A DNA stretch of 64,000 nt, taken from Verrucomicrobiota bacterium. Lineage in GTDB: Bacteria > Verrucomicrobiota > Verrucomicrobiia > Limisphaerales > UBA11358. Where the stretch lies: positions 5,511-69,510 of the forward strand of contig JBEKKZ010000008.1 of the NCBI GenBank assembly GCA_050010435.1, given 5' to 3'. Below are positions 2,485 through 46,640 of the stretch, one piece after another. The notes below the pieces were generated by a model that was not told the DNA's origin, searched no databases, and saw only the letters and a list, made by a program, of their open reading frames with translations. Made by a program: the position numbers and the translations under genes. The stretch's first letter is position 1, and each line of letters starts with the position of its first letter.

Positions 2485-4857
2485 TCAGACGCGGGCTACT
2501 GTGGTTGCGGGAAGCGTTCGTTTCTTCCTTATCACCCGCCAGAGGATAAAGACCGTGCCCGCCATTAAAATGGAGATATACAGCAGTGCTGTCTTTCGCC
2601 ATGGCACACCATATCCAAAATCCCGGCCTTGAATCGAGGTTTGGAAGGTAATTTTGTTCTCCGCCAGAAGCGCGAGTGTGGATTCATCCGCCGGCGCGAC
2701 AAAGCCGGGGTAGTGCTTGCTCCCGGTCGGAGTAATCCAGAGCTCCTTGGAACCATTACTGTATTCGATGATCTCGAATCGAGTGTCCCGGCGTTCCGTG
2801 ATCATTTTTTGCGCTGACACTGCGGAAAGCGATTGCGTGTGCCAAGGAGTGACCAAACCCAGCAAAATGCCTGTCACGATCATCGGTAACGCAAGGCATA
2901 CGGCAACGGTCTTCGGTGACACCCACCACAGAAGGCGGGCGGCACCCGCTGTCAAAATGAAGATGCACAACAGCGATACCCACCGCCTTGGCCAAGTGTA
3001 TCCGAAATCCCGGCCTTGAACCAGCGTCTTACAAGCAATTCCTTTCTCCGCCAACAGCGCGAGCGTGGATTCGTCCGCCGGAGCAACAAAGTCGGGTCCC
3101 GCCAGAATACCCGCCCGGCTCGGCACGGTAATCCACAACTGCTTCGCTCCATCGTTTAATTGCACAACCTGGAATTGGCCGTCTTTGTAGTCGGTGATGA
3201 TTCTTTGCACCTCCGCCGCGGAAAGAGCCTGGAGAGTCCAGGGAGTGATCCGAACGAACGCCAGGGCTATCGCGAGCATTACCAGCGCAGCACACACGGT
3301 AACTATTTTCTTCTCTCTTCTCTCGACTCGCGGCGTGGTGGTTTCCTGTTGATAAAATTTTTGGGTTCCCGGTCGGCGCAGAAGCAGGACAGTGCCGGCC
3401 ACCACGATGAAGGTTGACAACAGCACCATCCATCCGCGGACGCCGCCGTTGTGGAAGTCCAGGTCTTCAATCAGAGTCGGATAAGTGATCCCCTTGTCGG
3501 TCAGTGCTGCAACCAGAGAGTCATTCAAAGGCGTCCTAAGGATGATCCGGTGATTCTCCGGGAGGGTGATTTCCAAAGACTTCGAGCCATCCCGGAATTG
3601 ACAAACCGTAAATCGGGCATCCTTGCGTTCAGAGATGATGCTCCGCGCCTCCGCCTCGGGAATGTACTTGGAGGACAACGTCCCGCCCGAGAAAAAGAGG
3701 GCAAACAGGAACGTCCCGATTATGCAAGCCGGCCCGATCATTCCCAGCGTAACCCAGAGATTGTACGATTTACTTGTCGTCCGGGTTGTTTCTACTTCGC
3801 TCCGGCGGGCGTCGCGCTTTCGCTGCCACACCCAGATGGCCAGGGCTGCTGTCACCAGCCAGTAAAATGCGGTCAACGACCACGTCTGCGTGTGGAAAAT
3901 CCAGGGATGGGAATGAATCAGCGAGTTGGGAACGAGTATTGGAGGCAGAACGAACACGAAGAAGCCGATGGCCAATGTGCGCCAGAACTGGATGATGCGT
4001 TTGCGCCCCAAGGGAGATTGCTGGCTGGTTCGCCCCATCTTGCGGCCGACCCAGCGGCCAAAGAATCCGAACACGCCAAACAGAGAAAAGAGAATCATCG
4101 CGCCACCCGTCAGGAACGTGCCCAACATTCCCGCGCCGGTTGCGGCCTTGGCGGCCGAGCCGCCCTTGGTCGCGGCAGCGGTTGCCGTCGCTGCCTTGGC
4201 CGTCGTGGCCAGCAATGGCAGGGCCGCAATCACGCCGAGCGTGAAGGTCTTGCCCGGACTGGTCTGCTTCAGCGCGCCGGCGACAAAGGCGAGGAATTGC
4301 TCCTGCAACAGCTTCCGTCCCCGTGACAACCGTTGCTTCACCGCGTCCTCGCTCAACTCCAGATCCTGCGCCACGGCCTCGATGGATTGGTGCTCGCGAT
4401 AAAACAGGACCAGCGGTTCGCGATAGATTTCCGGGATGCGTTCGAGCGAACGCCAGAGAATCGCCTTTTCCTCCTCGCTGATGACCTGGTCCGGCGGCAG
4501 CGGGTCCGGTGAGGCCCATTCATCCACCGCCGCCAGCGATTCGGCGGCATGAACCGGCTCGCGTCCCTGGCGCCGGAACTCCTTGCTGATGAGGAAACGG
4601 GTGATGCTGCACAACCAGGGCCGCAGCTTGGCCGGCTCACGCAGTTCCGCCAGTTGTTTCCAGGCGGACACGAAGGTTTCCTGGGCGAGGTCTTCGCTCT
4701 GGCTCACGTTGCCGGTGGCGCAATACGCCAGCGAGGAAATCAAGGTTTGATACCGTTCAACAATCCGGCGGAAGGCATCCCGGTTTCCGCCCAGGCTTTC
4801 GGCCACCAGCTCGGCATCGTTGAATTCCACAGTGTACATTGCTTCGGTTGTCATCAT
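2485..4857 (-). CDS. ECF (sigma-70 family) sigma factor fused to a polytopic membrane region with three tandem repeat modules
   Basis: ORF 2485..4968; start moved to ATG 4857 (MMTTEAMYTVEF). The N-terminal ~190 aa carry sigma regions 2 and 4 (FRRIVERYQTLISSLAY; EAVAQDLELSEDAVKQRLSRGRKLL). These are followed by hydrophobic segments and three repeat modules (DNA 3229-3666, 2833-3228, 2488-2832). Each module is a ~80-aa soluble domain plus TM helix/helices. Confidence 0.8.
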   Translation of the reverse strand: MMTTEAMYTVEFNDAELVAESLGGNRDAFRRIVERYQTLISSLAYCATGNVSQSEDLAQETFVSAWKQLAELREPAKLRPWLCSITRFLISKEFRRQGREPVHAAESLAAVDEWASPDPLPPDQVISEEEKAILWRSLERIPEIYREPLVLFYREHQSIEAVAQDLELSEDAVKQRLSRGRKLLQEQFLAFVAGALKQTSPGKTFTLGVIAALPLLATTAKAATATAAATKGGSAAKAATGAGMLGTFLTGGAMILFSLFGVFGFFGRWVGRKMGRTSQQSPLGRKRIIQFWRTLAIGFFVFVLPPILVPNSLIHSHPWIFHTQTWSLTAFYWLVTAALAIWVWQRKRDARRSEVETTRTTSKSYNLWVTLGMIGPACIIGTFLFALFFSGGTLSSKYIPEAEARSIISERKDARFTVCQFRDGSKSLEITLPENHRIILRTPLNDSLVAALTDKGITYPTLIEDLDFHNGGVRGWMVLLSTFIVVAGTVLLLRRPGTQKFYQQETTTPRVERREKKIVTVCAALVMLAIALAFVRITPWTLQALSAAEVQRIITDYKDGQFQVVQLNDGAKQLWITVPSRAGILAGPDFVAPADESTLALLAEKGIACKTLVQGRDFGYTWPRRWVSLLCIFILTAGAARLLWWVSPKTVAVCLALPMIVTGILLGLVTPWHTQSLSAVSAQKMITERRDTRFEIIEYSNGSKELWITPTGSKHYPGFVAPADESTLALLAENKITFQTSIQGRDFGYGVPWRKTALLYISILMAGTVFILWRVIRKKRTLPATTVARV

Positions 4858-4947: not shown

Positions 4948-4997
4948 GTGATAAGCGAGGTCAAACAACGTCCCACAGCCCGGCTGCCACGTTCAAC

Positions 4998-5026
4998 TTT
5001 ACATGCCAGCATTGCGGCCATAATCT
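4998..5026 (+). promoter_or_regulatory. Sigma70-like promoter of lipoprotein paralog 1
   Basis: TTTACA (4998-5003) followed by CATAAT (5019-5024) or TAATCT (5021-5026). The block is conserved almost base for base upstream of paralog 2. The ATG at 5033 lies only 7-9 nt after the -10 box. Confidence 0.45.
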
Positions 5027-5032
5027 CAGCAC

Positions 5033-5779
5033 ATGGCCAACGCGGCTCAACTTCCGAGGCGTTTCGCATTTTACCCGGTGCTCGCGTGTTTTCTTGGCGC
5101 GCTGCTGGTCGCCGGTTGCGGGAAACCGGCTGACGCTCCCAAAAGTCAGGTCACCGCGACCACCAATTCCACGCCGCCGCCGAAGGAAGCCGGTCCTGGC
5201 CCCGGTGAGAAGGTCTGTTTCGCGTGCAAAGGGGAAGGCACGGTGCCGTGTTTTGCGCCCGGTTGTGTGGATGGACAGGTGGATTGTCCGGCGCCTTGCA
5301 TCAAATTGAACAAGGGGGTCTGGGTGAAAATCCCCGGTCGCCCCGACCCAAATGAGACCATGCAATTGATCGTGGTTGATGGAAAGCAGGTGTGGGTTAG
5401 CAGTCATCATCCGGGGGTCACTTATACGTCGCGTGCTGACGGCGGCTGGGACATGCACACCTGCCCGGTTTGTAACGGCACCGGCAAGGTGAAATGCGAT
5501 GTCTGCAAGGGAACGGGAAAAGTAACCTGTCCGGTTTGCAACGGAAAGAAGTTCATTCCAGCCGCCTGGACGCCCACGGACAATCCGTATTTCAACCGCC
5601 AGCCTGACATAATCCGGCTGGCGGACGGGCGGGTGTTGCTGGGCCGGGTGGCGGCGTCGGTGGGCGACGATCGAACGATCGTCACGCGCGACAAAAAAAT
5701 CCTGCACGTGAAAGCCTCGGACATCCTGCCCAAGGCGGGGACAAATTTCCCCGCAGCGCCGGCTTCGCCGGCGAAATGA
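5033..5779 (+). CDS. Lipoprotein with a DnaJ-type cysteine-rich (CxxCxGxG) zinc-finger-like domain, paralog 1
   Basis: Signal peptide with lipobox LLVAGC. Motifs CFACKGEG, CPVCNGTG, CDVCKGTG and CPVCNGKK, plus CFAPGC...CPAPC. Paralogous to 12888..13649. Confidence 0.75.
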   Translation: MANAAQLPRRFAFYPVLACFLGALLVAGCGKPADAPKSQVTATTNSTPPPKEAGPGPGEKVCFACKGEGTVPCFAPGCVDGQVDCPAPCIKLNKGVWVKIPGRPDPNETMQLIVVDGKQVWVSSHHPGVTYTSRADGGWDMHTCPVCNGTGKVKCDVCKGTGKVTCPVCNGKKFIPAAWTPTDNPYFNRQPDIIRLADGRVLLGRVAASVGDDRTIVTRDKKILHVKASDILPKAGTNFPAAPASPAK

Positions 5780-5925
5780 TCGCGCGGGTTTTTACGCGAA
5801 TTGCCCGAATTTTCACGAATTGAATCTGCCGCACGACTTCAACAGTGGCCGCCGTTGAACCGGAGTGGCACCGGCACGTCGGCCTACCGCCTGGCCGCGT
5901 GAGACCGAAGGCCTTTTACGCGGCC

Positions 5926-6000
5926 TTGGCTGGAAAAGACCGGAATTTCCACCCGACCGGACAATTGCCGCCCGACCCGTAGCGCCAGCCGGCATTCGCC
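5926..6000 (+). repeat. ~75-bp repeat element, copy 1
   Basis: ctggctggaaaagaccggaatttccacccgaccggacaattgccgcccgacccgtagcgccagccggcattcgcc. A near-identical copy lies at 11660-11733. Confidence 0.7.
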
Positions 6001-6166
6001 GTCATAGTTTCGTTATTCATGGGGTCGTGCTTTGGCTCACACAATCACCTGAGACCGCTGACCCCTTCCAGTCGCGTCCGGTTCACAACGGAAGGTCGAG
6101 TGCGCTGATTTCGCGCGTGGCGCACATTCACTGACGAAGATTGAAGATGGCGGACGGTGCGCCGGG

Positions 6167-6961
6167 CTAATGGTTGAGGTCTTGTCTCACAAAAAGAATC
6201 AGGCCAACGACGAATGTGACGATGGCGGACACTCCGCATAACTCAATCATCTTCCACACTTCGGGACGCCATTGATAATCCATTCCCTGAGCGATCTGCA
6301 GGAGGTTCAGCCAGGAGTAAGTGATGTAGCGGGTGAAAATGTAGGGATCAAGTCCCGCCAGGTGCTTGGTGAACTCAATGACGAACAAGGTGCTGATGCC
6401 CACCGCCACGGCCGCTCCCGGAGTGCGAACGATGGTGGAGATCAAGATCCCATACATGACGAGGGCCGCCAGCGGAATCCAACTGAGCGCATAAGCCAAC
6501 AAGAATTGTTGCATCACCTGGTTCCGACTATAGACAACTCCTGCGGAATCGCCCACCGCGCCGAAGTGGTAATGGATCTTGGCCAGCGCCGCGGAGAAGA
6601 GCAGAGCGGCGATGGAGAGGACCACCATGTAAAACAACCCGATAACCGCCTTGGCCAGGTACAACTCCCAACGATGCACCGGAGCGGCCAGCGCGGCGCG
6701 GATCGTGCCGGCGCCCGTTTCTTCAGCCAGCAACATGGCGGCGAACACGATGATAAAAATCGGGCCAAGGTCCGTGAAGACCAGTTGCATCGAAAAACTG
6801 ACATAGCCCCAGGCGTTCGCCGTGGCTGTGTTGCTAAGCTGGCCGGCGATAAAATAAATGATCACGCACAACAGACCCACGGCGAAAATGCCGAAGTAAG
6901 GCAGCTTGCGGCGCACGGCCTTCACGACTTCGTTTCGCAATAACGGTACGAATTGGTTCAT
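6167..6961 (-). CDS. ABC-2 family transporter permease
   Basis: 264 aa with about six hydrophobic helices. Directly downstream of the ABC ATPase in the same orientation. Confidence 0.75.
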   Translation of the reverse strand: MNQFVPLLRNEVVKAVRRKLPYFGIFAVGLLCVIIYFIAGQLSNTATANAWGYVSFSMQLVFTDLGPIFIIVFAAMLLAEETGAGTIRAALAAPVHRWELYLAKAVIGLFYMVVLSIAALLFSAALAKIHYHFGAVGDSAGVVYSRNQVMQQFLLAYALSWIPLAALVMYGILISTIVRTPGAAVAVGISTLFVIEFTKHLAGLDPYIFTRYITYSWLNLLQIAQGMDYQWRPEVWKMIELCGVSAIVTFVVGLILFVRQDLNH

Positions 6962-6970
6962 TTTATAAAG

Positions 6971-7098
6971 GGTAGGGCAAAGCTGCCGCTTTGCCTGTTT
7001 TTGCCAGCGAGCGTAGCGATGCTGGCAATCGCAACGAGAAACAGCATCGTTGCGCTCGTTGTTTCAAAGTCAGGGCGGAGCAGCAGTTCCGCCCTCCC
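6971..7098 (+). repeat. ~128-bp GGTAGGGC-family REP/MITE-like element between the ABC ATPase and permease genes
   Basis: Starts ggtagggcaaagctgccgctttgcc (hairpin ggcaaagc/gctttgcc). Has internal hairpins gccagc...gctggc and gggcgga...tccgccc, and ends gccctccc. Homologous to the minus-orientation copy at ~12655-12797. Confidence 0.65.
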
Positions 7099-7114
7099 AT
7101 TTATGAGATGGGTT

Positions 7115-8143
7115 CTAGGCATAAGGTTTATCTCCCGCCGGCGGGGCCGTAGCGTGGCCTTGCGGCGCGTGAAGTCCGGCCTGCGCGGACGGAGCCGGGT
7201 TGATCGAAGATGGCACTTCGGCGCGGCGAAGTCCCGTGATGGATAGGAAAAACTCTTTCAAGGTCTTTTGTTTGGGCGCAATGGCCGAAACCCTGAACCC
7301 CGCCTGCTGCAGACATTGGTTCAGCCACGCGGAATCGTCCTGCGCCAGCGTGATCTCCATGGTATCCGCAGTAATGGTTTCCGCTTTCCGGATCTGTTCG
7401 TGCCGCGAAATGAAATCGCGATCAGGAATCCTGCCCTGGAAGGTGACCCGCACGATCCGTTCGTGCGGTTTCAACAGCTCCTTCACGCGGCCGGAAGCAA
7501 CCAGATGCCCGCGATTGATGACATAGACCGTGTCGCAAAATTCCTCGACTTCGGACATCAGATGGCTGGAAACAAAGATGGTGAGTCCGTCGTTCCTGAC
7601 CTTCTCCCGCAGGAACGAGAGCACTTCGTGGGTTCCCTCGGGATCCATCCCGTTGGTCGGCTCGTCCAGGATCAGGAGGCGTGGCCGGCCCAACAACGCC
7701 CGGCCGATGCCCAGACGCTGTTTCATGCCGGTCGAATAAACCCGCACGCGATCATGCTGCCGCTCCGCCAGGCCGATCCGTTCCAGAATTTCATCTATCT
7801 CACGCGTAGAGACGTGGTCGAGCAAACGGGCGGCGAGTTCGAGGTTCTTTCGGCCGGACAGGTACTCATAAAAAGCCGGCGTTTCCACAGTGATGCCCAC
7901 CGAGCGGATCGCCTTTTTGTAATCCTTCCAGATATCCACGCCGAAGAGGCGGATGCGCCCGTGGGTGGGTCGCACCAGCCGGGGGATGATATAAAGCGTG
8001 GTGCTCTTGCCCGCTCCGTTCGGTCCGAGAAACCCAGCCAGGTGTCCGGGTTCAACCTGCAAGGAAAGATGGTCCACCGCCTGAACGCGCCCAAATCGCT
8101 TGGAGACGTCTTCCAAAACCAGTGCTGGCGGAGATTCCATCAT
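7115..8143 (-). CDS. ABC transporter ATP-binding protein
   Basis: Walker A GPNGAGKST, signature YSTGMKQRLG, Walker B LLILDEPTNGMD. Has a C-terminal Pro/Ala-rich tail. Confidence 0.9.
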   Translation of the reverse strand: MMESPPALVLEDVSKRFGRVQAVDHLSLQVEPGHLAGFLGPNGAGKSTTLYIIPRLVRPTHGRIRLFGVDIWKDYKKAIRSVGITVETPAFYEYLSGRKNLELAARLLDHVSTREIDEILERIGLAERQHDRVRVYSTGMKQRLGIGRALLGRPRLLILDEPTNGMDPEGTHEVLSFLREKVRNDGLTIFVSSHLMSEVEEFCDTVYVINRGHLVASGRVKELLKPHERIVRVTFQGRIPDRDFISRHEQIRKAETITADTMEITLAQDDSAWLNQCLQQAGFRVSAIAPKQKTLKEFFLSITGLRRAEVPSSINPAPSAQAGLHAPQGHATAPPAGDKPYA

Positions 8144-9726
8144 GGGTTTTTACCTTTTGCCTGGCGTGGTGGCGACATGAAAATGGAAAGGTTGGGCTTG
8201 TCCCACTCGTGCCAGATGATATCCGACAATCCATCGCCGTTCAGGTCCTGGATTTCAATATAGCCGTGCGTCGGCACGTCGAAAGTCATGGCAGGTTGCG
8301 ACGCGAACCAGCGTCCGTTCGTCGTGCTGAGAAAAATGTTCCATTGAGTGTCCGAGCGTCTGACCAGAAGATCGAGACGGCCGTCGCCATTGAAGTCTCC
8401 TTGAACCAGGAACGGCCACCCGGCCAAAACTTCCGATGGCAGGATTCCCGTCACCGGCACGGACGCGTCCGGGCTGCGGGAAAAGGCGCCGTTATGGAAC
8501 GACCGGATCGTGAGCGCCCAATCCAATCCGTGTGAGACCACCGTTTCCACCAGTCCGCTCTCGGAGATAATGCGGGTCTTCATTTCGAGCAGAACCAGTT
8601 CGCATACACCATCGCCATCCAGATCATGCACGGGCGACCGCTTTTTCGTGGAACCGATGGGAATCGGGAACCCGCGACAGTGCAGCACTTGCGTCGGCTG
8701 CTCGGGCAACTTTTGGTCCGCGCCGCGCAGGAAGATATAAACGTCGGTTTTGAAATCCAGCTTGCCGCCGGCCTGCCACAGAATCAGGTCTTCCCGGCCA
8801 TCGCCATCCACATCCACGCGGTCCAGTTGTGGCGGACTCGCGGCGGTGGTTTTTTTCATGTCGGCGATGATCTTCCGGATGACTTCATTCTCCGGCTCCT
8901 TGTCCCGCGCCTGCTCCGGTTGGGCGCGAAACGATTGTTCAACGTCCAGGCTGTGCGCGGGATTGGGTCCCAACGCCCAAAAGTCGCGCCACAGGTAGCG
9001 GTTGACGTGCCAGGCCGTTTGTTTCACGTCGAGGGCCAGCGGCGGTCCGGGGCTCCATTCATAAGCGCTGTTCCGATGGTACAGCACGGTCTGCCCCGCG
9101 GAAATCACCGGGATTAAATCGTTCGTTCCGGTTTTGTTCGTGTTCAGCAAAGTCAGGGTCGGCAGGTCGTAGTTGGTGAATCCCTGGCTCACCTCGATGA
9201 GCGGGTGTCGCTCCGATTCGAACAAGCCGGCGTTCTGCCGACAATAAAACAGCCCGGCGGCGGTGGACATCAGCAGTTCGAGGCCGGGATGCGCATCCAC
9301 GTCGCATGGGGCGACCCAGGCGGTTTGTGGCGGCAGGGGGATGACCTGATCGGGTGAGTTGGTGAAGCCGTCCGGGCGCTGGCGATAGTTCAAAAGTTTT
9401 TTCTCCACCGTATCAATTACGAGCAGATTGCAGCGGCCGTTCCCTTCAATATCAACAAAAAGCGGCGCACCGGCGTTGGCTGGGAGTGTGATCAACTGGG
9501 GCAACAGCACCACCGGCTCGGCCCAGCCAACATTCACCGCGAGGAACAGCAATAGAATGGCAGCGCAAACGGAGTGCGGCCGTCCCGGCCGCAGCGTTGG
9601 GAAACTTTGCGGGGGCGTGGAAGTTTCCTGAGCCTTCGCACTCACCTCGTTGCTGCGGCCCGGAGGGCCGCACTCCGGAAGCAGGAGGCTGCCAGCGCTG
9701 GTTTCAGGTTGTGGGAGGAAAAACAT
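8140..9726 (-). CDS. FG-GAP/VCBS-repeat protein (secreted or membrane-anchored)
   Basis: Repeated DxDGDG Ca-binding-type motifs: DVDGDGREDLILW, DLDGDGVCELVLL, DFNGDGRLDLLV, DLNGDGLSDIIW. N-terminal hydrophobic segment. Its stop overlaps the start of the ATPase gene. Confidence 0.75.
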   Translation of the reverse strand: MFFLPQPETSAGSLLLPECGPPGRSNEVSAKAQETSTPPQSFPTLRPGRPHSVCAAILLLFLAVNVGWAEPVVLLPQLITLPANAGAPLFVDIEGNGRCNLLVIDTVEKKLLNYRQRPDGFTNSPDQVIPLPPQTAWVAPCDVDAHPGLELLMSTAAGLFYCRQNAGLFESERHPLIEVSQGFTNYDLPTLTLLNTNKTGTNDLIPVISAGQTVLYHRNSAYEWSPGPPLALDVKQTAWHVNRYLWRDFWALGPNPAHSLDVEQSFRAQPEQARDKEPENEVIRKIIADMKKTTAASPPQLDRVDVDGDGREDLILWQAGGKLDFKTDVYIFLRGADQKLPEQPTQVLHCRGFPIPIGSTKKRSPVHDLDGDGVCELVLLEMKTRIISESGLVETVVSHGLDWALTIRSFHNGAFSRSPDASVPVTGILPSEVLAGWPFLVQGDFNGDGRLDLLVRRSDTQWNIFLSTTNGRWFASQPAMTFDVPTHGYIEIQDLNGDGLSDIIWHEWDKPNLSIFMSPPRQAKGKNP

Positions 9727-9729
9727 GGG

Positions 9730-11358
9730 TTATTTCTGGCTGATGAATATGCGAAAGCCCTTTTGTTTTGCCAGTTTCACGATCAGATCACTGACGCCAT
9801 CGTTGTTCAGGTCCGTGACCTGCCATTCATCAATCGGTTCCGGGCAACTGAACCGCAGGTCCGGTTCCGGGCTGAACCCTTTCTCCCGCGAAACAAAGGA
9901 GTAAACCGAGATCGCATCACTGTGGTCTCGCACCAGCAAATCCGTTTTGCCATCCCCGTTAAAATCGCCGCCGAGTTTGACGTAGCGCCCGAAATATTCG
10001 GGCAGATCCTCCTGCATCTCGGCTCGGTCCAGATGGATGACCACGTCACGTTGACAGTCCGCTTCTTGTGGAAAGCCAATGCCGGGCCGGTAGAAGTAAA
10101 ACCGGAGATTGTAATCGAGCTTTTTGGAGGTGATCATCTTGCGAAGGCCCTCCTTGTCCTCGATGTGACTGTAGCCCAACACCAGGTCTGGAAAACCATC
10201 GCCATCCACGTCCACCACCGGCACCGCGGGCGTCCAGTCGTTCTTGCGAAAGACCTGTTGCGGTTCGGCCGGAATCCGGCCGTGCTCGTCGGCAATATAA
10301 GTGCTCACCAGCACTTTGCCGGAAGGAACTGCTGGTATGAATGAAGGCTCGTTCAGCCAGAGGCCCTTGATCAGATCCACCTTGCCGTCACGGTTCAGAT
10401 CGGCCCAGCAAAGCCATGAGAACGGTTCCACCTTATCCGCGTACGTTAACGCCGGTCCAAGAGCAAACAGTCCATTGGTCTGCTGCAGGTAAAGGCTGTA
10501 GGTGTTGGTCCAGCCATTACTGCGCCTGACCATCAGATCATCACGTCCGTCGCCATTGACGTCGCCCACGCTCAGGTCGAATTCAAACGACGTGGTATAT
10601 CCGGGATTAGCCACTGACGGCCACAGGCCGGCATCGATGGCCTGGCCGATGACTTGTGCCTGACGCCACTCGTCGCGATGTTGCCCGTCCTCCGTAGTCC
10701 CGATGAAATTGGGACGGAGGATGGACCAGACCTGAAGTCCGTCCACCGCCGGCACCAGCAGCAGCGGCCAGTCGCGGCCGGTTTCGACCGACAACGGAAG
10801 GTACATCGCGTTCGTGCCTTCCGCCGCATCCATCGCCTCCGGAACAATCGTGGCTTGCCTGATGATTTGCCGGATGGCGGGAGGACCGGTTCGATTGGTA
10901 AAACAAAGCTCAGTCACTCCGTCGCTGGTCATGACGAGCAAACTCTCGGCCGGCTTGCCCAGTTTGGCCGCCCAGACCAGACACGGCCGGGGCTCGAGAC
11001 GATAGGTTTGTTGCGGTTCGCGAGTGAAGCCGCGTTTGGGATCCTGGTAGAAGATGGATAGATTGGTATCGTCCATCAGAACCAGATCCTTGAGACCGTC
11101 ACCGTCCAGATCGCAGATCATCAACTGCTGGCATGGGCCGGCGATTTCACTGGCGTTGAACTTCGGTTTAGCCTGAGCCGATGAGCAGGCCAGAAGGGAA
11201 AGGCTCAACAGGACTAGCGGGAGTCTTCTCAGCTCCCATCCTCCGTAGCCGTGGCGGTAAGGGCGGGCCGACGCTTCAAGGGCGTCACTGGGAAGGGTGG
11301 ATGCGTCGTCGGCAGCAGCACTGCGGAGGGTGGATGACCTCGCTTCGTTTTGCTTCAT
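9730..11358 (-). CDS. FG-GAP/VCBS-repeat protein with signal peptide
   Basis: ORF 9730..11697. The upstream part of the ORF runs through REP sequence, so the start was moved to ATG 11358 (MKQNEA...RRLPLVLLSLSLLACSSAQA). Motifs DLDGDGLKDLVL, DVNGDGRDDLMV, DLNRDGKVDLI, DVDGDGFPDLVL, DFNGDGKTDLLV, DLNNDGVSDLIV. Confidence 0.75.
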   Translation of the reverse strand: MKQNEARSSTLRSAAADDASTLPSDALEASARPYRHGYGGWELRRLPLVLLSLSLLACSSAQAKPKFNASEIAGPCQQLMICDLDGDGLKDLVLMDDTNLSIFYQDPKRGFTREPQQTYRLEPRPCLVWAAKLGKPAESLLVMTSDGVTELCFTNRTGPPAIRQIIRQATIVPEAMDAAEGTNAMYLPLSVETGRDWPLLLVPAVDGLQVWSILRPNFIGTTEDGQHRDEWRQAQVIGQAIDAGLWPSVANPGYTTSFEFDLSVGDVNGDGRDDLMVRRSNGWTNTYSLYLQQTNGLFALGPALTYADKVEPFSWLCWADLNRDGKVDLIKGLWLNEPSFIPAVPSGKVLVSTYIADEHGRIPAEPQQVFRKNDWTPAVPVVDVDGDGFPDLVLGYSHIEDKEGLRKMITSKKLDYNLRFYFYRPGIGFPQEADCQRDVVIHLDRAEMQEDLPEYFGRYVKLGGDFNGDGKTDLLVRDHSDAISVYSFVSREKGFSPEPDLRFSCPEPIDEWQVTDLNNDGVSDLIVKLAKQKGFRIFISQK

Positions 11359-11659
11359 TTCGAGAATATTTGACCAGACCAGACGGCATTCGTCACGCGG
11401 CTGAACAGCCGCGAAAAATGTTGACCTGCGGCTGGGGCTTTGTCCAGTGTCGGAAACCAGACGTGGCCGCTCCGACGCAAACATTTTAACCACGGATCCC
11501 GCAGAGCGGGACGGATTCACACGGATTGGGCTGGGGAAAAGAATATTCCACACGGTTTTCAAAATTTGATTTTTTGTGAGTTGCTTTTCTCGTTGAAACA
11601 TCGCCTTTTTATCCGTGTCCATCCGTGGTTTCAACAGTTGGCAGCGAATCAAAGCTGCC

Positions 11660-11733
11660 CTGGCTGAAAAGACCGGAATTCCCACCAGACCGGCCAATGG
11701 CCGCCCGACCCGTAGCGCCAGATGGCATCAGCC
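11660..11733 (+). repeat. ~75-bp repeat element, copy 2
   Basis: ctggctgaaaagaccggaattcccaccagaccggccaatggccgcccgacccgtagcgccagatggcatcagcc. Same orientation as the 5926-6000 copy. Confidence 0.7.
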
Positions 11734-11922
11734 GTGTTGCTGCGTGGATCCGCGGCGCACCATCGCGTGAGATACGCGACGCTGCAATTAATTCAACTTG
11801 GACAGTTCGGCTTCCGCCTTCGCCAAGGCTACGATGGACAGGTCGATGGACAGATCGCGGGTCTTGGCCTGCACGACGCCCTTGCCCGGTCGGGATGACC
11901 GGAAAAAAGCTCGCGCGGTTGC

Positions 11923-12522
11923 GTGAAAAGGTGCAGAGGTTTATCCGAAAACATGAGCCGGGAACAGCCCATGTCACCACCAACGAAATCTTTGATCATG
12001 AACACCAGTTTTCAAAACACGTTCGAGACCATGGAAGCCGGCGAACTCCGGCGCTATCTGGAGTTCCTGCTGTGGCATTACAAAGTGGCGGACGCCTTTT
12101 GGTTCATCTACGCCACCGAACGCTTCGGCCAGGGCGTCGCCGAGCAATTGAATGAGCAGGTCTGGGGTCGCGTGGGCGGCATGGCGGCCAAAGAATTGGT
12201 GGCGCGATTCCAGATTCAGGAGAAAGGCCTGAAGGGATTCGTGCGCGCGCTCAAGTTGTATCCCTGGACGATTTTGATCGGATACCAAATCCAGGAATCG
12301 GAGCACGAAGTGGTGCTTACGGTCCCATCCTGTCCCAGCCAGGAAGCGCGGTTGAAGCGCGGATTGGGGGAATATGCGTGCAAGGAAATGCACCGCGCGG
12401 AATTCGAAAGTTTTGCCCGGGCCATTGACGACCGGATTCGCGTGTCCTGTGTCTTCGCCCCGCCGGACCCGCACCCCAAAGAAGCCTTCTGCCAATGGCG
12501 GTTCGTGCTGGAGGCCACGTAA
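11923..12522 (+). CDS. Hypothetical cytosolic protein (possibly ATC-hydrolase-like/DUF6125-like)
   Basis: Clean 199-aa ORF. The start is uncertain; alternative ATGs are at 11953, 11971 and 11998. Motifs [19 protein letters not shown] and [22 protein letters not shown]. The family assignment is from memory only. Confidence 0.45.
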
Positions 12523-12654
12523 AGCTCTGCGCCACGTGGCAGGGATAAACCGACGGCGGCGCGTTTTTGCCCGTCCCTTGGCGCGGCGAAGTGTAACGAA
12601 GACGGCTCGTTCTCGAATTTTCCGGACGTGGATTTTATACCAATCCCCTGAGAC

Positions 12655-12797
12655 CATGCCCTGCCGCGCCGCCCAAACTTCCACCAGAACGAGCGGAGCA
12701 ATGTTCTCGCGTGCGTAGTGCGTAGCCCCATGGTTCCGCCAGCATGGCTGCGCTGGCTGGCGGTGAGATTGGGGCAAACCGGCAGGTTTGCCCTACC
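12655..12797 (-). repeat. GGTAGGGC-family REP/MITE-like element (minus orientation; left boundary approximate)
   Basis: The reverse complement begins ggtagggcaaacctgccggtttgcc. It then follows the same hairpin order as 6971-7098: gccagc..gctggc, aacgagcg, gggcgg. Confidence 0.55.
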
Positions 12798-12852
12798 ATC
12801 GTTGGTGGTTGTGTCAGTTGCACCCGGCGCTCATTCACCGGCCACGTTCAAC

Positions 12853-12881
12853 TTTACATGCCAGCATTGCGGCCATAATCT
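12853..12881 (+). promoter_or_regulatory. Sigma70-like promoter of lipoprotein paralog 2
   Basis: Same TTTACA...CATAAT/TAATCT block as 4998-5026. ATG at 12888. Confidence 0.45.
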
Positions 12882-12887
12882 CAGCGC

Positions 12888-13649
12888 ATGGCCAACGCGG
12901 CTCAACTTTTGAGGCGTTTCGCATTTTGCCCGGTGCTCGCCTGTTTTCTTGGCGCGCTGCTGTTCGTCAGTTGCGGGAAGCAATCCTCCGCGCCCGAAAG
13001 TCAGCCCACCGCGGCCACCAATGCCGCGCCGCCGCCGCCGAAGATGGCCGGCCCAGGCCCTAATGAGAAGGTCTGCTTCGAGTGCAGAGGGAAAGGCACG
13101 GTGGCTTGTCTCATGCCCGGGTGCACCAATGGCGAGGTGGATTGTCCGGGACCTTGTCTCAAACTGTCAAAGGGTGCGTGGATACACATGACCGTGGCCG
13201 GACATGATCCAAAGGAATTGTGGCAGAAATTTCCGAATAAGAATGGCCAGGGGGGATATCAAGCCTGGAACCAGGATCATGTCGGCGAGGTCATCGTGTA
13301 CAAAAATGGCGTGGCGGTGAATATCGGCAAGTGCAAGGTCTGCGGTGGCACCGGCAAGGTGACGTGCAATGTTTGCAAGGGAACGGGAAGGCAAACCTGT
13401 CCGGTTTGCAACGGAACAAAATTTGTTCCGCTCGCCTGGACGCCCACGAATAATCCGTGGTTCAACAGTCAGCCCGATCTGATACGGCTCAAGGACGGAC
13501 GGGTGCTTCTGGGCCGGGTGGCGGTGGCGATTGGCGAAGAGAGAACGATCATAACGCGCGACAAACAAATCCTGCACGTGAAAGCCCCGGACATCCTGCC
13601 CAAGCCGGATACCAACTCTCCCGCAGCCAAAACTTCGTCTTCAAAATGA
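12888..13649 (+). CDS. Lipoprotein with a DnaJ-type cysteine-rich zinc-finger-like domain, paralog 2
   Basis: Lipobox LLFVSC. Motifs CFECRGKG, CKVCGGTG, CNVCKGTG and CPVCNGTK. Collinear with 5033..5779. Confidence 0.75.
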   Translation: MANAAQLLRRFAFCPVLACFLGALLFVSCGKQSSAPESQPTAATNAAPPPPKMAGPGPNEKVCFECRGKGTVACLMPGCTNGEVDCPGPCLKLSKGAWIHMTVAGHDPKELWQKFPNKNGQGGYQAWNQDHVGEVIVYKNGVAVNIGKCKVCGGTGKVTCNVCKGTGRQTCPVCNGTKFVPLAWTPTNNPWFNSQPDLIRLKDGRVLLGRVAVAIGEERTIITRDKQILHVKAPDILPKPDTNSPAAKTSSSK

Positions 13650-13926: not shown

Positions 13927-14403
13927 ATGCCCGGCAATGACAGCACCATGCCAGAGAACATAGAGCCAGAACTGACCTTGGAGCAGTTGCGCACGCTGCT
14001 TCCCCCCGTCGAAATGGATTTCGACACGCCGGAAGGAGCCATTCTCTGTTTGGAGGACGCCTGCCGCCGGCAGAACATCGAATCCGCCTGCGTCTGCAAG
14101 AATTTCATGATCGAGGGAACGCTGAAGCTGCTGGACCTCGACCCAAACCTGGCGCGCGACCCGGAGTTCCGGAAGAAGAACGCCCTGCTTTTGGAGCGGA
14201 CTTACCGGAAGGCAACCACGGAGTCCTGGCCTGACCTCAAGGGCGTGGAAAGTTTTTTCATTGACCGTCAGCTTTACACCGACGGCATCGTGATGGTGAC
14301 GGAGCTTCACCGGTTACGGGACGGCACGTTCAACCAGCTCAAACTGCTCGTGGCAAAAACCAAGGACGGCTGGAAGGTGCTTAATCCGATATCGGATGAC
14401 TAG
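13927..14403 (+). CDS. Hypothetical protein
   Basis: 158-aa ORF with no strong competing ORF. No recognisable motif. Confidence 0.4.
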   Translation: MPGNDSTMPENIEPELTLEQLRTLLPPVEMDFDTPEGAILCLEDACRRQNIESACVCKNFMIEGTLKLLDLDPNLARDPEFRKKNALLLERTYRKATTESWPDLKGVESFFIDRQLYTDGIVMVTELHRLRDGTFNQLKLLVAKTKDGWKVLNPISDD

Positions 14404-26210: not shown

Positions 26211-26330
26211 ACACGGCATTACACAACGTAGAAAAAAGGGCAGCCGATCTAACGGCGCGTGCAAGCGAAAAGCCGCATAAAAGCAGCTTTAGACAACAGG
26301 AAAGCAATTAGACAACAGGAAAGCAACCAT

Positions 26331-26963
26331 ATGAAAACTTTAGCTATGAAAACCTTCATTACCGGGCTGGTACTCGCAGGATTCGTCGTGGCGTTCGCCG
26401 GCGCGGCAAATGCACAAATGATGACTGGGTCCATGGGTGTTGCTGCGGACCCGTTTGTAACTTTCACCGGTTCTTGGACCGCCTCCTCGCTCACAATGAG
26501 CGCCATCAATCTTATTACGACCAGCGAACAAGGCACCTTTCTTGCCCTAGTGCCCTCACACAGCGACCTTACGGCTTACACCACAACAATTACTGGTCTC
26601 TCTACCAGTCCTACGGCAGAAAACATTCCTGACTTTTTCGTCTTTTCTACGCCTGACGTCACATTTGCGACTTCAGGGACAACGCCTAACAACCGGTTTG
26701 AGTTCAACTTGGCCACAATTACGGACGTGGGGGGAGGTGTTTTCACCGGAACGGGAACGCTTGTCGACACCACAGCGGCCTACGCTAACACGCCAGGTAT
26801 ATTCACCCTTAGCTTCCCTGATGATGTCTACTCATTCACTATAGCGGCAGTGCCTGAGCCTTCCAGCCTCTGCCTGTTGATTGGCGGGTTGGGTCTGCTG
26901 GTTTGGACCAATCATGCGCGTCGCCGGAATCTTCCGATTAAACCCTCTCAGCGTGGTTACTGA
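26331..26963 (+). CDS. PEP-CTERM sorting-domain protein
   Basis: ORF trimmed to ATG 26331. Signal peptide MKTLAMKTFITGLVLAGFVVAFAGAANA. C-terminal VPEPSSLCLLIGGLGLLVWTNHARRR. Confidence 0.8.
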   Translation: MKTLAMKTFITGLVLAGFVVAFAGAANAQMMTGSMGVAADPFVTFTGSWTASSLTMSAINLITTSEQGTFLALVPSHSDLTAYTTTITGLSTSPTAENIPDFFVFSTPDVTFATSGTTPNNRFEFNLATITDVGGGVFTGTGTLVDTTAAYANTPGIFTLSFPDDVYSFTIAAVPEPSSLCLLIGGLGLLVWTNHARRRNLPIKPSQRGY

Positions 26964-26972
26964 TTTTCGTGG

Positions 26973-27644
26973 ATGAACACCGCATTACACAACGGAGAGG
27001 AAGTGATGGCCAATGTTGGCCGGGCCAACGGTGGCGCACGATACATGCCCCGGTTCGACCAAGACGGTCAAGACGGGTTGGGCAACGGTTTCACATCAGC
27101 CAAAGTCGAGGAGAGCTGTTGCGGTGAGGAATTAAAGCCTTTCTGGCTGGAGGACGGGCGTTTTGGCGCGGTGTGCAGAAAGTGCGGCCAGCAGTTCGCG
27201 GACAACACTCAGGTGCGGTATGGCGGTTCCCCGTGGATTGGGGTGGATCTGGACGGGACACTGGCCCGCGACCTTGGCAGCACGCGAGGGGACGAGATTG
27301 GCAGTCCGATTGAGCCGATGCTGGTCCGCGTGCAGAAATGGATTGCCGAAGGACGCACCGTAAAAATTTTCACCGCGCGCGCCTCCTCACCCAGGCAGGT
27401 GGTGGCGATAAAAGAATGGCTCGTCAGTTGTGGATTGCCGGATTTGGAAGTGACCAATGTAAAAGACCAGCGAATGATTGAGTTGTGGGACGATCGTTGC
27501 GTGCAAGTAACGACCAATTTGGGGGAACCCATCGGCAAAAAGGCGGGATTCAGGCACCCGAGACAGGCGAGGATGCGGGAAGAAGATCGGCAGGGAATAT
27601 CCTTGGGATTGTTCAACCGTCTCAGAATTTTATTGGCTCTATAG
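26973..27644 (+). CDS. Zinc-ribbon + HAD-superfamily phosphatase-like protein
   Basis: The N-terminal part has CCGEE...CRKCGQQF. This is followed by HAD motif I IGVDLDGTLA and KIFTARASS (motif II-like). The start is uncertain. Confidence 0.55.
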   Translation: MNTALHNGEEVMANVGRANGGARYMPRFDQDGQDGLGNGFTSAKVEESCCGEELKPFWLEDGRFGAVCRKCGQQFADNTQVRYGGSPWIGVDLDGTLARDLGSTRGDEIGSPIEPMLVRVQKWIAEGRTVKIFTARASSPRQVVAIKEWLVSCGLPDLEVTNVKDQRMIELWDDRCVQVTTNLGEPIGKKAGFRHPRQARMREEDRQGISLGLFNRLRILLAL

Positions 27645-27683
27645 TTCATGATTAATTTGAACCCAAAACCATTTCTTGGCGCA

Positions 27684-27762
27684 GGAATCGTGGCGTGTGA
27701 CCAGGATTCAAGCGGGCCCCCGCAAAAAAACTAATCAAAAAAAACAAAACTCGAATCAGAAA
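27684..27762 (+). repeat. Conserved ~80-bp leader block upstream of a PEP-CTERM gene, copy 1
   Basis: ggaatcgtggcg..ggattcaagcgggcccccgcaaaaaaactaatcaaaaaaaacaaaactcgaatcagaaaa. Compare with 28480-28557. Confidence 0.65.
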
Positions 27763-27767
27763 AGTTT

Positions 27768-28364
27768 ATGAAAATTAGAACGCTTGCAATTATGGCCGCG
27801 TTGCTGGCGGGTGCCGGTTTCAGCCGGGCGGATATCACGGGTATCAACATCTGGGATTATAACAACTCTGTTTTGACTTGTTCTTATGGCCCTCTAACAG
27901 GCAGCTCCGGTAACTACCAGTATGGCATTGATGGGACGCAGCTCGCATGGGCCGTGGGGAGCATGGGAGGCACTATCTCTACGGATGGGGACCCAACGCT
28001 GCAACTCGGCGAGCAAATTAATAATGATACCGGGTCAACTTGGAACGACTACCACGTCACGATTACGATGAGCCAGTCGTTTTCATTTTCCAATGTCGGC
28101 GTGACCAATGGTGGGTGGACAGACATTGTCACCGCGCCGACCTTGGTTGGCAGCGACTGGGTTGGGCACATCGACTATTATGCCGGCAATCTGGTTCCAA
28201 ATGGCGGCACGCTGGATTTTAGTCTTTCAATAGCCTTCACTGGAACTACGAGTTTTGAGGAAGATCTGATGCCCTCCACGGTCCCCGAGCCCGGGACATT
28301 CGCACTCATGGTTTGTGGGCTGACAGGTCTGTTGGTCATGCGGCGGCGTTCGGCCATGAAATAA
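27768..28364 (+). CDS. PEP-CTERM sorting-domain protein
   Basis: Signal peptide MKIRTLAIMAALLAGAGFSRA. C-terminal VPEPGTFALMVCGLTGLLVMRRR. Confidence 0.8.
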   Translation: MKIRTLAIMAALLAGAGFSRADITGINIWDYNNSVLTCSYGPLTGSSGNYQYGIDGTQLAWAVGSMGGTISTDGDPTLQLGEQINNDTGSTWNDYHVTITMSQSFSFSNVGVTNGGWTDIVTAPTLVGSDWVGHIDYYAGNLVPNGGTLDFSLSIAFTGTTSFEEDLMPSTVPEPGTFALMVCGLTGLLVMRRRSAMK

Positions 28365-28479
28365 CCAGATAACCATTAAAACCCGCCGTATTATGCGTAT
28401 TCCAGAGAACCCAATCAATCCCATGTCACTCCTTTGGTATCTGGATTACGCACTGGCCCTCTTTTTGATTTTTGTCACC

Positions 28480-28594
28480 GGAATCCTGGCGGGCAGCCGG
28501 GATTCAAAAAAAGCCCCCGCAAAAAGCTAATCAGAAAAACAAAACTCGAATCAGAAATGTATTCAAGCAGGCCCCCGCAAAAAACCAACTGAAG
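28480..28594 (+). repeat. Leader block copy 2, plus a third partial copy of the attcaagc-ggcccccgcaaaaaa motif
   Basis: ggaatcctggcgggcagccgggattcaaaaaaagcccccgcaaaaagctaatcagaaaaacaaaactcgaatcagaaatg, followed by attcaagcaggcccccgcaaaaaacc (28561-28586). Confidence 0.65.
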
Positions 28595-28630
28595 AAAAGT
28601 TAACAACAGCAACAAAAACAGAAAGGGAAT

Positions 28631-29290
28631 ATGACAGTACGGAAATTACAACTGGCGATCATGGCGGCCGGTTTGGCCGGTGCGATGAGTGCGAGCGCCG
28701 TAACCCTTACATTTGATAATGTAGACCCCTCCCAAACGGTAAATCTCACCGATCCTTGGATCTCAAGTGGAGCAAATGCCGGAATATACAATCTGACCGT
28801 GGATGGAGTGGCGACCCCCTCATTCTGCATTGATGTAGCTGACGAAAATAACGGGAATACGTTCAGCGACTACTATTATAGCGACCTTGCATCTGCTCCG
28901 CTGGCTCCCGCCGGTCCCATGGGCGCTACTGCCGCAACCGATGTCGAGAAACTATGGGCAGCGTACTACTCTCCCTCCATGGACAGCCTGGATGCCGCAG
29001 CCCTGCAGGTGGCCATGTGGGAGGACATAGCCGCGAAGGCCATAACTCCATACAGCATCACCGTGAGTGGCAATGATCCGGTTACAACCGAAGCCACCGC
29101 CATGATAGCCAACCTCGTTAACCTCAGTGCTCAGGCAGATCTGGTGGGTTTGGTGGGTCCCAATGGCCCCAGTGGTGAACAGAGTTATGTTGTGGCCGTT
29201 CCCGAGCCCACGACGGCTGGCTGTTTTCTGCTGGGCTTGGGTGCCTTGGCTTGTTTCCTGGTGCTTGAGACAAAAAGCCGGCGCGTTTGA
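28631..29290 (+). CDS. PEP-CTERM sorting-domain protein
   Basis: Signal peptide MTVRKLQLAIMAAGLAGAMSASA. C-terminal VPEPTTAGCFLLGLGALACFLVLETKSRR. Confidence 0.8.
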   Translation: MTVRKLQLAIMAAGLAGAMSASAVTLTFDNVDPSQTVNLTDPWISSGANAGIYNLTVDGVATPSFCIDVADENNGNTFSDYYYSDLASAPLAPAGPMGATAATDVEKLWAAYYSPSMDSLDAAALQVAMWEDIAAKAITPYSITVSGNDPVTTEATAMIANLVNLSAQADLVGLVGPNGPSGEQSYVVAVPEPTTAGCFLLGLGALACFLVLETKSRRV

Positions 29291-29349
29291 TTTCTGGCAC
29301 TCGAAATAATCCACAAACTTTCAATCCAAACAAACAAAACCTATCAGTT

Positions 29350-30228: not shown

Positions 30229-30409
30229 TTCAGCGTAACATTCAAAATGCAGCAACATTCATTTGTTCTGTAAAAATGGGCACCGTATTGGGTCGGTTCA
30301 AAAATAAACAACAATAGGGCAATCGTGTGAAAGAAAGACTTCTGGATTAGGCGTCGAGCCAGAAGTCGCTTTCCGCGGTGGTCGAAAACAGAAGGTAAAC
30401 ATGAAAAAA
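30139..30409 (+). repeat. Conserved anchor+leader module A (PEP-CTERM codons, stop, ~170-nt intergenic leader, next ATG)
   Basis: Near-identical by eye to 31142-31413. Starts gttcccgagcccacgacggctggctgttttctgctgggcttgggtgccttgg and ends ...gtcgaaaacagaaggtaaacatgaaaaaa. Confidence 0.8.
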
Positions 30410-46570: not shown

Positions 46571-46587
46571 TAGCAGTACCAATGCCA
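46571..46587 (-). promoter_or_regulatory. Sigma54-type (-24/-12) promoter
   Basis: Sense strand TGGCATtggtaCTGCTA. GG and GC are spaced as in TGGCAC-N5-TTGCW. Confidence 0.55.
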
Positions 46588-46640
46588 AAATCCAAGTGAA
46601 AAACAGGAGATTTTTTTGAGAATCAGCTTGCCTGGGTTCA

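Follow-up and report, generated by a model that had tools for sequence, protein, structure and literature searches.

Interlocus (ectopic) gene conversion between bacterial paralogs is known from tufA/tufB in Salmonella and from pilS-to-pilE in Neisseria. Here we describe a comparable gene pair in a stretch of 64,000 nucleotides (nt; hereafter, the window) of contig JBEKKZ010000008.1, assembled from a Verrucomicrobiota bacterium of the order Limisphaerales (GCA_050010435.1), which carries two paralogous genes for cysteine-rich lipoproteins, copy A (5033..5779, plus strand) and copy B (12888..13649, plus strand). The locus shares with the Salmonella and Neisseria systems the apparent non-reciprocal copying of a short tract between dispersed paralogs of one genome, with sharp breakpoints, a tract grouping with the paralog, and unconverted alleles persisting in close relatives. 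In contrast to both, the tract spans a putative promoter spacer and a signal peptide and not a functional part of the protein, and unlike in programmed systems of the pilS-to-pilE type, there is no sign of silent cassettes. Only two candidate conversion events were seen, a short one from B to A in the window strain and a longer one from A to B in a relative (L001).

The gene products have partial counterparts as well. RcsF and NlpE are envelope-sensor lipoproteins with Cys-rich domains, leaderless mRNAs are a known class of bacterial transcripts, and the CxxCxGxG repeats, four per protein in copies A and B, recall the DnaJ (PF00684), BSD2 (PF25436, PDB 6ekb), and Anti-TRAP families. Considering all evidence, we regard it as highly probable that copies A and B are an old pair of independently transcribed genes for exported Cys-rich lipoproteins, the near-identity of their 5' ends resulting from conservation throughout the family together with a recent B-to-A conversion. 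The mechanism of conversion is ordinary, while the protein family is unannotated and mildly novel.

Two lipoprotein paralogs and their shared 5' region

Copies A and B encode collinear lipoprotein precursors of 248 and 253 amino acids (aa), respectively, sharing 61% protein identity over the full length (BLASTP, E 9e-102). The first-pass annotation had recognized the two open reading frames (ORFs) as collinear paralogs with a lipobox, a low-complexity linker, four CxxCxGxG-like motifs, and a beta-rich tail, and each of these elements was indeed seen in both proteins. A search for anything resembling A or B found no third copy within the window; the copy B protein is also present on four further contigs.

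Pairwise DNA alignment combined with 30-nt sliding identity revealed an abrupt left edge of homology 47 nt 5' of both ATGs (4986/12841), at GCCACGTTCAAC. Up to 4985/12840 the identity is about 40% and thus random; it amounts to 90-100% from 4986 to about 5100 and to 70-83% on to about 5300, drops to about 30-45% (no homology) at about 5310-5460, and returns to 73-87% past about 5460, rising once more to about 97% at 5686-5730. Homology stops about 10 nt beyond the stop codons, and the non-homologous middle of about 130-150 nt splits both genes. The longest perfect match covers 45 nt (4986-5030), created by the conversion, followed by matches of 23, 22, and 21 nt. This 45-nt upstream string, GCCACGTTCAAC...CTCAGC, has two exact copies in the window (4986 and 12841), with none expected. 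The similarity therefore peaks at the 5' end from -47 onward, as had been proposed, and divergence along the genes is not uniform, leaving intact the suggestion that conversion or selection had acted there.

The converted part of this region became apparent by comparison with three independent assemblies of sister strains (L030, L031, and L032). Over 950 nt (-150 to +800), their A copy equals the one of the window save for 13 substitutions, all 13 of which are confined to 5004..5066 (-29 to +33), and at 11 of these sites the window carries the B state. Considering a background of 20 differences in about 7 kb (a divergence of about 0.3% elsewhere), at least 13 differences in 63 nt would occur by chance with a Poisson probability of 3e-20. 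The converted allele was found on contigs from two samples (3300037843 and 3300037993) and the unconverted one in three samples, with copy B being alike in all contigs except two divergent B-locus ones (L038, L042). The A-locus orthologues L004, L006, L008, and L014 carry the unconverted spacer CACCGGCACGGCGG and GCTCCAC, and the window state is the one present in the B-locus orthologues L013, L018, and L022, from which a transfer in the direction B to A follows.

The tract thus delimited lies on the plus strand, with minimal borders of 5004..5066 and maximal borders of 4986..5072, and covers the spacer of the putative promoter, the flank of its -10 hexamer, and codons 1-11. Its length of 63-87 nt is bounded on the left by the homology edge at 4986 and on the right by position 5073, where A keeps its own state. 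In sliding segments starting at 4987-5017, copy A is 0.93-0.98 identical to B versus 0.71-0.93 to its own orthologues, with the highest A/B values in the first two segments; downstream of the tract, A is closer to its orthologues than to B. Identity between A and B of the same genome over -47..+40 is 97% in the window versus 85% in the sister strain, 84% in SPRUCE 68, and 82% in SPRUCE 652, and within the window it amounts to 97% over -47..+40 versus 77% over +41..+280. Sharp-edged high identity, phylogenetic incongruence, and an unconverted allele in close relatives, the marks of interlocus conversion, are consequently all present, and by these marks the event is a short and recent B-to-A interlocus gene conversion in the window strain. 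It alters three residues of the cleaved signal peptide (P6Q, T8P, T12A), the only part in which the A protein of the three sister assemblies differs from that of the window. As the mature protein is untouched, the conversion was probably near-neutral.

The first-pass annotation had left the choice between gene conversion and strong selection on promoter and signal peptide; both act and are separable. In a first layer, the promoter-like block and signal peptide conserved throughout the family keep A and B at 82-85% identity even where unconverted; in a second layer, 63-87 nt of the A locus were overwritten with B-type sequence, raising the identity to 97%. Selection thus accounts for about 83%, and conversion adds the rest. 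The tract proposed earlier (-47..+75) was correct as a region of high identity, but its converted part comprises only the 63-87 nt. Between 5073 and about 5110, A/B identity does not change when the unconverted allele is compared instead; this is family-wide conservation, also seen in orthologues. Conversion was likewise considered for the 3' peak at 5686-5730 and rejected, with A being 98-100% identical to its orthologues there, the sister strains showing no differences, and the segment being conserved family-wide.

In contrast to the tract, the duplication itself is not recent. A first, word-indexed homology search returned 208 proteins at E <= 1e-3, nearly all of about 250 aa, from JGI, ENA, and NCBI metagenomes. 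They are named "hypothetical protein", and the few taxonomic labels are Limisphaerales or Verrucomicrobiota. When 1.8 billion cluster representatives were searched with a profile, 582 matched at E <= 1e-3 and 60 at E <= 1e-30; a genome scan gave 24 loci, almost all in peat or bog Verrucomicrobiota metagenome-assembled genomes (MAGs; SPRUCE and MFD series), and no Pfam or NCBIfam model reached threshold for the lipoprotein family. Relatives of copy A are 82-85% identical to it (P0002, P0003) and relatives of copy B 84-89% (P0049, P0074, P0048), versus 61% between A and B. In SPRUCE 68 both copies lie on one contig about 11 kb apart, in the layout A ... ABC/FG-GAP ... DUF6125-B-p158, with the same block of ATP-binding cassette (ABC) transporter and FG-GAP genes between them as in the window. 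Because A and B each have closer orthologues and their own conserved neighbours, and because SPRUCE 68 shows the same layout, the duplication is old by sequence comparison and the bracket formed by the two genes is old and stable; a recent duplication was rejected in view of these orthologues and the locus-specific flanks.

Exchange between the loci recurs. In L001, the gene at the B locus (between DUF6125 and p158) is B-like in the flank upstream of it and over roughly its last 80 nt (0.91-0.98 versus 0.59-0.69 to A), while its core, about 500 nt with the middle cassette, is of A type (0.82-0.96 versus 0.32-0.8 to B), which identifies it, on the basis of this mosaic, as a long A-to-B replacement. 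In SPRUCE 68 and SPRUCE 652, the genes at the A locus combine A-like flanks with a different middle. These mixtures indicate that the family evolves as a mosaic. The middle segment of about 45 residues comes in discrete types, with the A type in about 20 of 120 matches, the B type in the majority, and at least one further type. Since the middle segment of distant relatives resembles the B type, the comparison suggests this type to be ancestral. In a separate B-locus orthologue (L023:10001-10754, in MFD05580.bin.2.12), the ORF ends after 57 codons and similarity resumes in another frame, making the broken gene either a putative pseudogene or an assembly error.

The conserved upstream block

The upstream block of copy A (4986..5032, plus strand) contains TTTACA (4998-5003), a 15-nt spacer, CATAAT (5019-5024), and 8 nt to the ATG. 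The one of copy B (12841..12887, plus strand), with TTTACA at 12853-12858 and CATAAT at 12874-12879, represents the donor-type sequence of the conversion. An alignment of -70..+3 from the 24 loci showed the arrangement CTTTACA-N15/16-CATAAT-N8-ATG to be kept in the family, with CTTTAC, CATA.T, the last C, and the ATG being invariant. The spacer between the hexamers is freely variable in sequence and has a length of 15 nt, or of 16 nt in three loci. Between CATAAT and the ATG, 22 of the 24 loci have 8 nt; L019 has 9 nt and L021 has 12 nt. Within the window, the hexamer motif is present only at these two genes, and each hexamer matches its sigma-70 counterpart (TTGACA/TATAAT) at five of six positions.

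The block of copy A holds no Shine-Dalgarno sequence, and no GGAG-like run is present in the aligned loci. With an in-frame TAA at position -12, translation can begin only at the annotated start. We infer that the block serves each gene as its own promoter, placed directly against the start codon. Because a promoter-like block abuts the ATG and a Shine-Dalgarno sequence is missing, the mRNAs of copies A and B are presumably leaderless or nearly so. In common with leaderless bacterial mRNAs are a -10-like hexamer 8 nt before the ATG, the missing Shine-Dalgarno sequence, and an in-frame stop just upstream; the hexamer spacer of 15-16 nt sets the locus apart.

Alternatively, the block might not be a promoter but a 5' leader element, e.g., a hairpin GGCCAU...AUGGCC occluding the start codon. 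RNAalifold predicts a 6-bp stem in which the ATG region pairs with the CAT of CATAAT and the bases next to it, with 95% of the cells paired. However, three of its six base pairs are invariant, 78 of 500 shuffles reach its covariation score, and covariation contributes an energy of about 0; with covariation no better than in shuffled controls, the occluding hairpin was rejected. In addition, neither the A/B alignment nor the 24-locus alignment showed any homology 5' of -47 that could supply a shared promoter to such a leader. We therefore consider a leader element unlikely and retain the promoter as the preferred interpretation of the block.

Two further readings of the upstream region were discarded. 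A scan for extracytoplasmic function (ECF) and sigma-54 promoters found nothing, with the look-alikes recognized by eye sitting on positions variable among the loci, and a six-codon upstream ORF (ATGCCAGCATTGCGGCCATAA), considered as a conserved element, is missing from the unconverted allele and most loci.

Alternatives to a conversion between the paralogs

Several points weigh against the combined interpretation of an old, independently transcribed, and exported pair with a recent conversion. The tract sites 5031, 5054, and 5055 do not carry the present B state. The sister strains also differ by a cluster of seven single-nucleotide polymorphisms (SNPs) at 3325-3377, in the sigma factor fusion gene next to copy A, for which no intragenomic donor was found within the window, and at 7587-7991, in the ABC ATPase gene, the window is set apart from L031 and L032 by densely clustered SNPs, again with no donor in the window and with a pattern differing between L031 and L032. 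Import between strains also yields SNP clusters, and all compared sequences are metagenome assemblies. A scan for canonical sigma-70 promoters (N16-18 spacer, at least 9 of 12 matches) returned nothing on this strand, as the spacer of 15 nt lies under the limit of 16 nt. Furthermore, all matches of the protein to DnaJ, BSD2, and SH3 domains described below remain under curated or significance thresholds, and a search for a functional partner in the gene neighbourhood gave no consistent candidate, the sigma fusion being swapped or absent among relatives.

The SNP clusters suggest frequent homologous recombination between the strains of this population, and the B-like cluster in copy A could likewise have been imported, either with the window strain taking up an A allele converted elsewhere or with the sister strains taking up a divergent A-type segment, in which case the B-like state would be the older one. 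Import would agree with the other donorless clusters between the same strains and with the three tract sites deviating from the resident B, two of which match B-locus alleles of other strains (CTTCCGAGG in L013 and L038; CAGCAC in L011). However, import only relocates the event, since a B-to-A transfer is still needed to bring B-lineage sequence into an A locus, and no known donor comes closer than the resident B, which agrees at 11 of the 13 sites distinguishing the window from the sister allele. Import is thus distinctly unlikely, and for a conversion within the window strain the three deviating sites imply that the donor was a slightly different B allele or that heteroduplex repair was patchy.

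The first-pass annotation had further proposed that the genes, as direct repeats of about 0.8 kb, could mediate deletion or amplification of the operon between them. This intervening operon (6167..11622, minus strand) contains, according to Pfam and the gene calls on the identical contig L033, an ABC-2 permease (6167-6961, minus strand), an ABC ATPase (7115-8143, minus strand), and two FG-GAP proteins (8140-9726 and 9730-11622, both minus strand); these about 5.5 kb of minus-strand genes are followed by the DUF6125 gene (11923..12522, plus strand; Pfam E 4e-26). Downstream of copy B lies its conserved neighbour p158 (13927..14403, plus strand), encoding a 158-aa protein with no family match. 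The conversion proves pairing and recombination of both loci, and the block and the B gene are variably present among relatives (L006, L019, L022). In contrast, wherever a contig with the exact p158 or sigma protein reaches the next gene, the neighbour is the normal one and no junction variant occurs, the layout is stable across the species-level divergence to SPRUCE 68, and perfect A/B runs comprise just 45 nt and then 23 nt, with the non-homologous middle interrupting the repeats. The MAG SPRUCE 435 (L006) lacks B and the ABC/FG-GAP block yet keeps DUF6125, which a simple A x B crossover would remove. A scan of metagenome contigs for the predicted deletion junction gave 0 matches, a weak result since the collection holds one contig of the locus. 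Repeat-mediated deletion or amplification is therefore possible in principle but unsupported, and we consider it quite improbable.

The locus in SPRUCE 435 is arranged as sigma gene (minus strand), lipoprotein A, about 2.6 kb of unrelated ORFs (L006:5482-8096), DUF6125, and p158. Its DUF6125-p158 spacer (L006:8629-8937) holds no B remnant and no clean junction and is unrelated to the one of the window. With no mobility genes found in 5780..12840 by ORF list and Pfam scan, the layout kept in SPRUCE 68, and no clean junction in SPRUCE 435, the repeats do not, by their sequence context, define a mobile cassette.

Purifying selection on promoter and signal peptide alone, acting without any recombination, is very improbable as the source of the 5' near-identity. 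The block is conserved in 24 of 24 loci, and positions 5062-5100 are 87-93% identical even between the unconverted A allele and B, but the spacer and early codons are free to vary among loci, unconverted A/B pairs reach just 82-85%, and otherwise identical sister strains show 13 clustered differences, 11 of them with the B state in the window. That the tract is an assembly chimera from collapsed repeat reads is scarcely credible, for although short metagenomic reads were assembled here, and repeats are well known to give rise to chimeras, the converted allele was assembled in two samples and the unconverted one in three, the 63-87-nt tract is flanked on both sides by A-specific sequence within a typical short-read length, assumed as about 150 nt, and with 5031 A and 5054 C it departs from the sister A allele as well as from B.

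The cysteine-rich protein, its neighbourhood, and its significance

Both copies are predicted to be exported, lipid-anchored proteins. Copy A begins with a signal peptide including the lipobox Cys29 (5033-5119, plus strand), MANAAQLPRRFAFYPVLACFLGALLVAG being followed by this cysteine, and its lipobox LVAG-C fits the lipoprotein motif [LVI][ASTVI][GAS]C, behind a positively charged n-region and a hydrophobic h-region. The signal of copy B ends with LLFVS before Cys29, with F at -3 as a looser fit; the family consensus LLFAG-C is present in 65 of 99 matches. A twin-arginine translocation (Tat) signal would permit export of a folded, metal-bound domain; it is unsupported because no more than 50 of 99 homologues share the RR of A and B, and was rejected also in view of the RR lying outside the consensus context (S/T-R-R-x-F-L-K) and of the strongly hydrophobic h-region.

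The signal peptide of copy A is followed on the plus strand by a Pro-rich linker between Cys29 and Cys cluster 1, disordered in the model, Cys cluster 1 (5216-5299), the A-type variable middle (about 5324-5452), Cys cluster 2 with three CxxCxGxG motifs (5462-5551), and an SH3-like barrel (about 5600-5737). Copy B likewise continues with a Pro-rich linker, Cys cluster 1 (13074-13157), the B-type middle as the widespread form (about 13179-13322), Cys cluster 2 (13332-13421), and the SH3-like barrel, all on the plus strand. The four CxxCxGxG/K motifs lie at residues 62, 144, 155, and 166 in A and at 63, 149, 160, and 171 in B, the last one ending in K. Including an extra Cx4C and Cx3C, the mature protein contains six Cys pairs (12 Cys) in the order CxxC, Cx4C, Cx3C ... 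CxxC x3. The lipobox Cys, all 12 mature Cys, and the four motifs are invariant in a 31-sequence alignment, so that the cysteine motifs are conserved among homologues, and exactly 12 Cys past residue 30 were counted in 99 of 106 full-length homologues.

The full-length AlphaFold2 (AF2) model has a mean predicted local distance difference test (pLDDT) score of 69, with residues 1-51 disordered and residues 52-180 and 190-235 of moderate to high confidence (block-mean pLDDT 72-92); modelled alone, the Cys domain reaches 85. Four beta strands (residues 110-143) are placed between both Cys clusters, within a beta-sheet insert of about 55 residues. A Foldseek search of the Cys domain against the PDB gave BSD2 as all top three matches (E 0.04-0.15, TM(target) 0.41-0.53), and a profile search of PDB sequences gave EMB2737 (E 2e-4), BSD2 (E 0.4-0.8), and DnaJ (E 6), the profile aligning the N-terminal and C-terminal Cys clusters to both BSD2 halves. 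Pfam scores of copy A amount to 21.6 bits for Anti-TRAP (PF15777; cut-off 32), 14.0 bits for DnaJ_CXXCXGXG (PF00684; cut-off 32.7), and 9.6 bits for BSD2_CRD (PF25436; cut-off 27), and copy B scores below copy A on all three models.

In motif and repeat number the module therefore resembles DnaJ, BSD2, and Anti-TRAP, with BSD2 as the closest fold. It differs from them in having six Cys pairs instead of four, a beta-sheet inserted between the clusters, a position behind a lipoprotein signal peptide where theirs is cytoplasmic or stromal, and Pfam scores of 10-22 bits against cut-offs of 27-33. According to the model, it is a module resembling the DnaJ/BSD2 hairpin with extra Cys pairs; because the curated thresholds failed, it is not filed as a member of these families. 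The designation as a DnaJ-type zinc finger in the first-pass annotation consequently holds for the motif likeness and for BSD2 as top structural match, but not at family level, the Pfam scores lying below gathering thresholds and the fold matches not being significant.

At about residues 190-235, the C-terminal part is modelled as a small barrel of four to five strands. It matches YgdR, Tudor, Hfq, and the myosin N-terminal SH3 domain with Foldseek probabilities of 0.9-0.99 and TM(target) values of 0.5-0.6, at E > 0.1. With the E. coli lipoprotein YgdR (PDB 3fif, 2jn0), for which we know of no function, and with SH3_VIII-1_N (PF25369) it shares a small SH3-like barrel, C-terminal here; however, with E > 0.1 and the PF25369 cut-off of 27 bits not reached (24-26 bits for some homologues, at most 15 bits for the window proteins), the likeness does not extend to membership.

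The module recurs in other architectures. Among distant relatives (P0251, 544 aa; P0167, 352 aa; P0146; P0163; P0237; P0215), we observed Ser/Thr kinase-transmembrane (TM) segment-module and FHA-TM segment-module arrangements as well as longer proteins with extra CxxC repeats, the module following a TM segment (by eye) in the kinase P0251 and the FHA protein P0167. An exported DnaJ-like module, called unusual in the first-pass annotation, is so in comparison with DnaJ but not within its own family, where it recurs outside membrane anchors in lipoproteins, the kinase, and the FHA protein. A literature search on exported DnaJ-like zinc-finger lipoproteins returned nothing relevant.

This recurrence outside membrane anchors points, if weakly, to an extracytoplasmic binding or sensing module as the most likely role, and the model weakly suggests a DnaJ/BSD2-like scaffold stabilised by metal or disulfide. 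RcsF and NlpE of Enterobacteria offer an analogy in their lipid anchor, flexible Pro-rich linker, and small Cys-rich globular domain; in addition, copy A often adjoins an ECF sigma/TM fusion, and the module also forms the ectodomain of a kinase and an FHA protein. It is an analogy only, with no similarity in sequence or fold and with a sigma adjacency that is not conserved. More speculatively, and with the chances rather against it, an undescribed extracytoplasmic sensor or binding domain and recurrent conversion swapping exchangeable middles could together form a small cassette-exchange system. The beta-sheet inserted into the DnaJ/BSD2-like hairpin would then come in discrete, exchangeable types, and the swapped segments would include the specificity-determining middle cassette, as in L001.

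Divergent from copy A lies an ECF sigma factor fused to a large multi-TM protein (2485..4857, minus strand; Pfam and NCBIfam). Its C-terminal region of about 570 aa contains several TM segments along with three internal repeats, each of about 130 aa, visible in the DNA as a repeat of 2558-2709 versus 2945-3096. In L006, L019, and L030 the fusion adjoins the lipoprotein gene; L004 and L007 have a different sigma fusion in this place, and in L008, L014, and L015 the nearest large upstream ORF is flavoprotein-like (by eye). DUF6125 precedes the B-locus gene in L001, L011, L013, L017, L018, and L020 (DUF6125-X-p158), and the ABC/FG-GAP block is located elsewhere or absent in relatives other than SPRUCE 68. 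A defence island was considered and rejected, PADLOC giving only generic ABC-ATPase similarities on 7115..8143.

Just outside both ends of the operon, an 83-nt direct repeat (87% identical; 5920-6002 and 11654-11735, plus strand) was observed. Relatives carry copies in the same places, 3' of the A-locus gene (L008, L019, L010) and 5' of DUF6125 (L013, L011, L020), as well as elsewhere (L001, L022). It folds weakly (z = -1.9 and -0.1 for the minus strand), and Rfam gave no match to a known RNA family in the region or the repeat. The mechanical ORF of the second FG-GAP gene (9730-11697, minus strand) runs 25 codons 5' of the called start at 11622 into this repeat; the true start is probably later still, with a signal-peptide-like LLSLSLLACSSAQA at about residue 165 of the ORF.

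Further repeats are found elsewhere in the window. A cluster of PEP-CTERM proteins (26259-32220, plus strand) with VPEPTT..GLGAL..RR tails contains three genes sharing 63-64-nt 3' ends of 97-98% identity (29195-29258, 30137-30199, 31139-31202). The coding ends of these sorting signals may have been homogenised, as a C-terminal counterpart of the lipoprotein signal-peptide pattern. Type IV pilin-like genes on the minus strand, with an N-terminal GFTLVEIMIVV motif, are overlapped at 46078-49351 by paralogous repeats that match at 85% over 577 nt (71-75% for a third copy). These repeats flank a 440-aa ORF (47373-48695) that is transposase-like by eye.

Although the overall importance is modest, the locus provides a clean natural case of a very short interlocus conversion tract, with alleles differing nowhere else in 950 nt. 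High 5' identity in old paralogs can accordingly be read as a conserved promoter and signal peptide plus a recombination patch, and not as recent duplication. In addition, the analysis flags an unannotated family of uncultured peatland Verrucomicrobiota, whose exported 12-Cys module is also present on receptor-type kinases. Should this module be a zinc binder outside the cytoplasm, or a sensor of redox state or metals, it would be of interest to envelope signalling.

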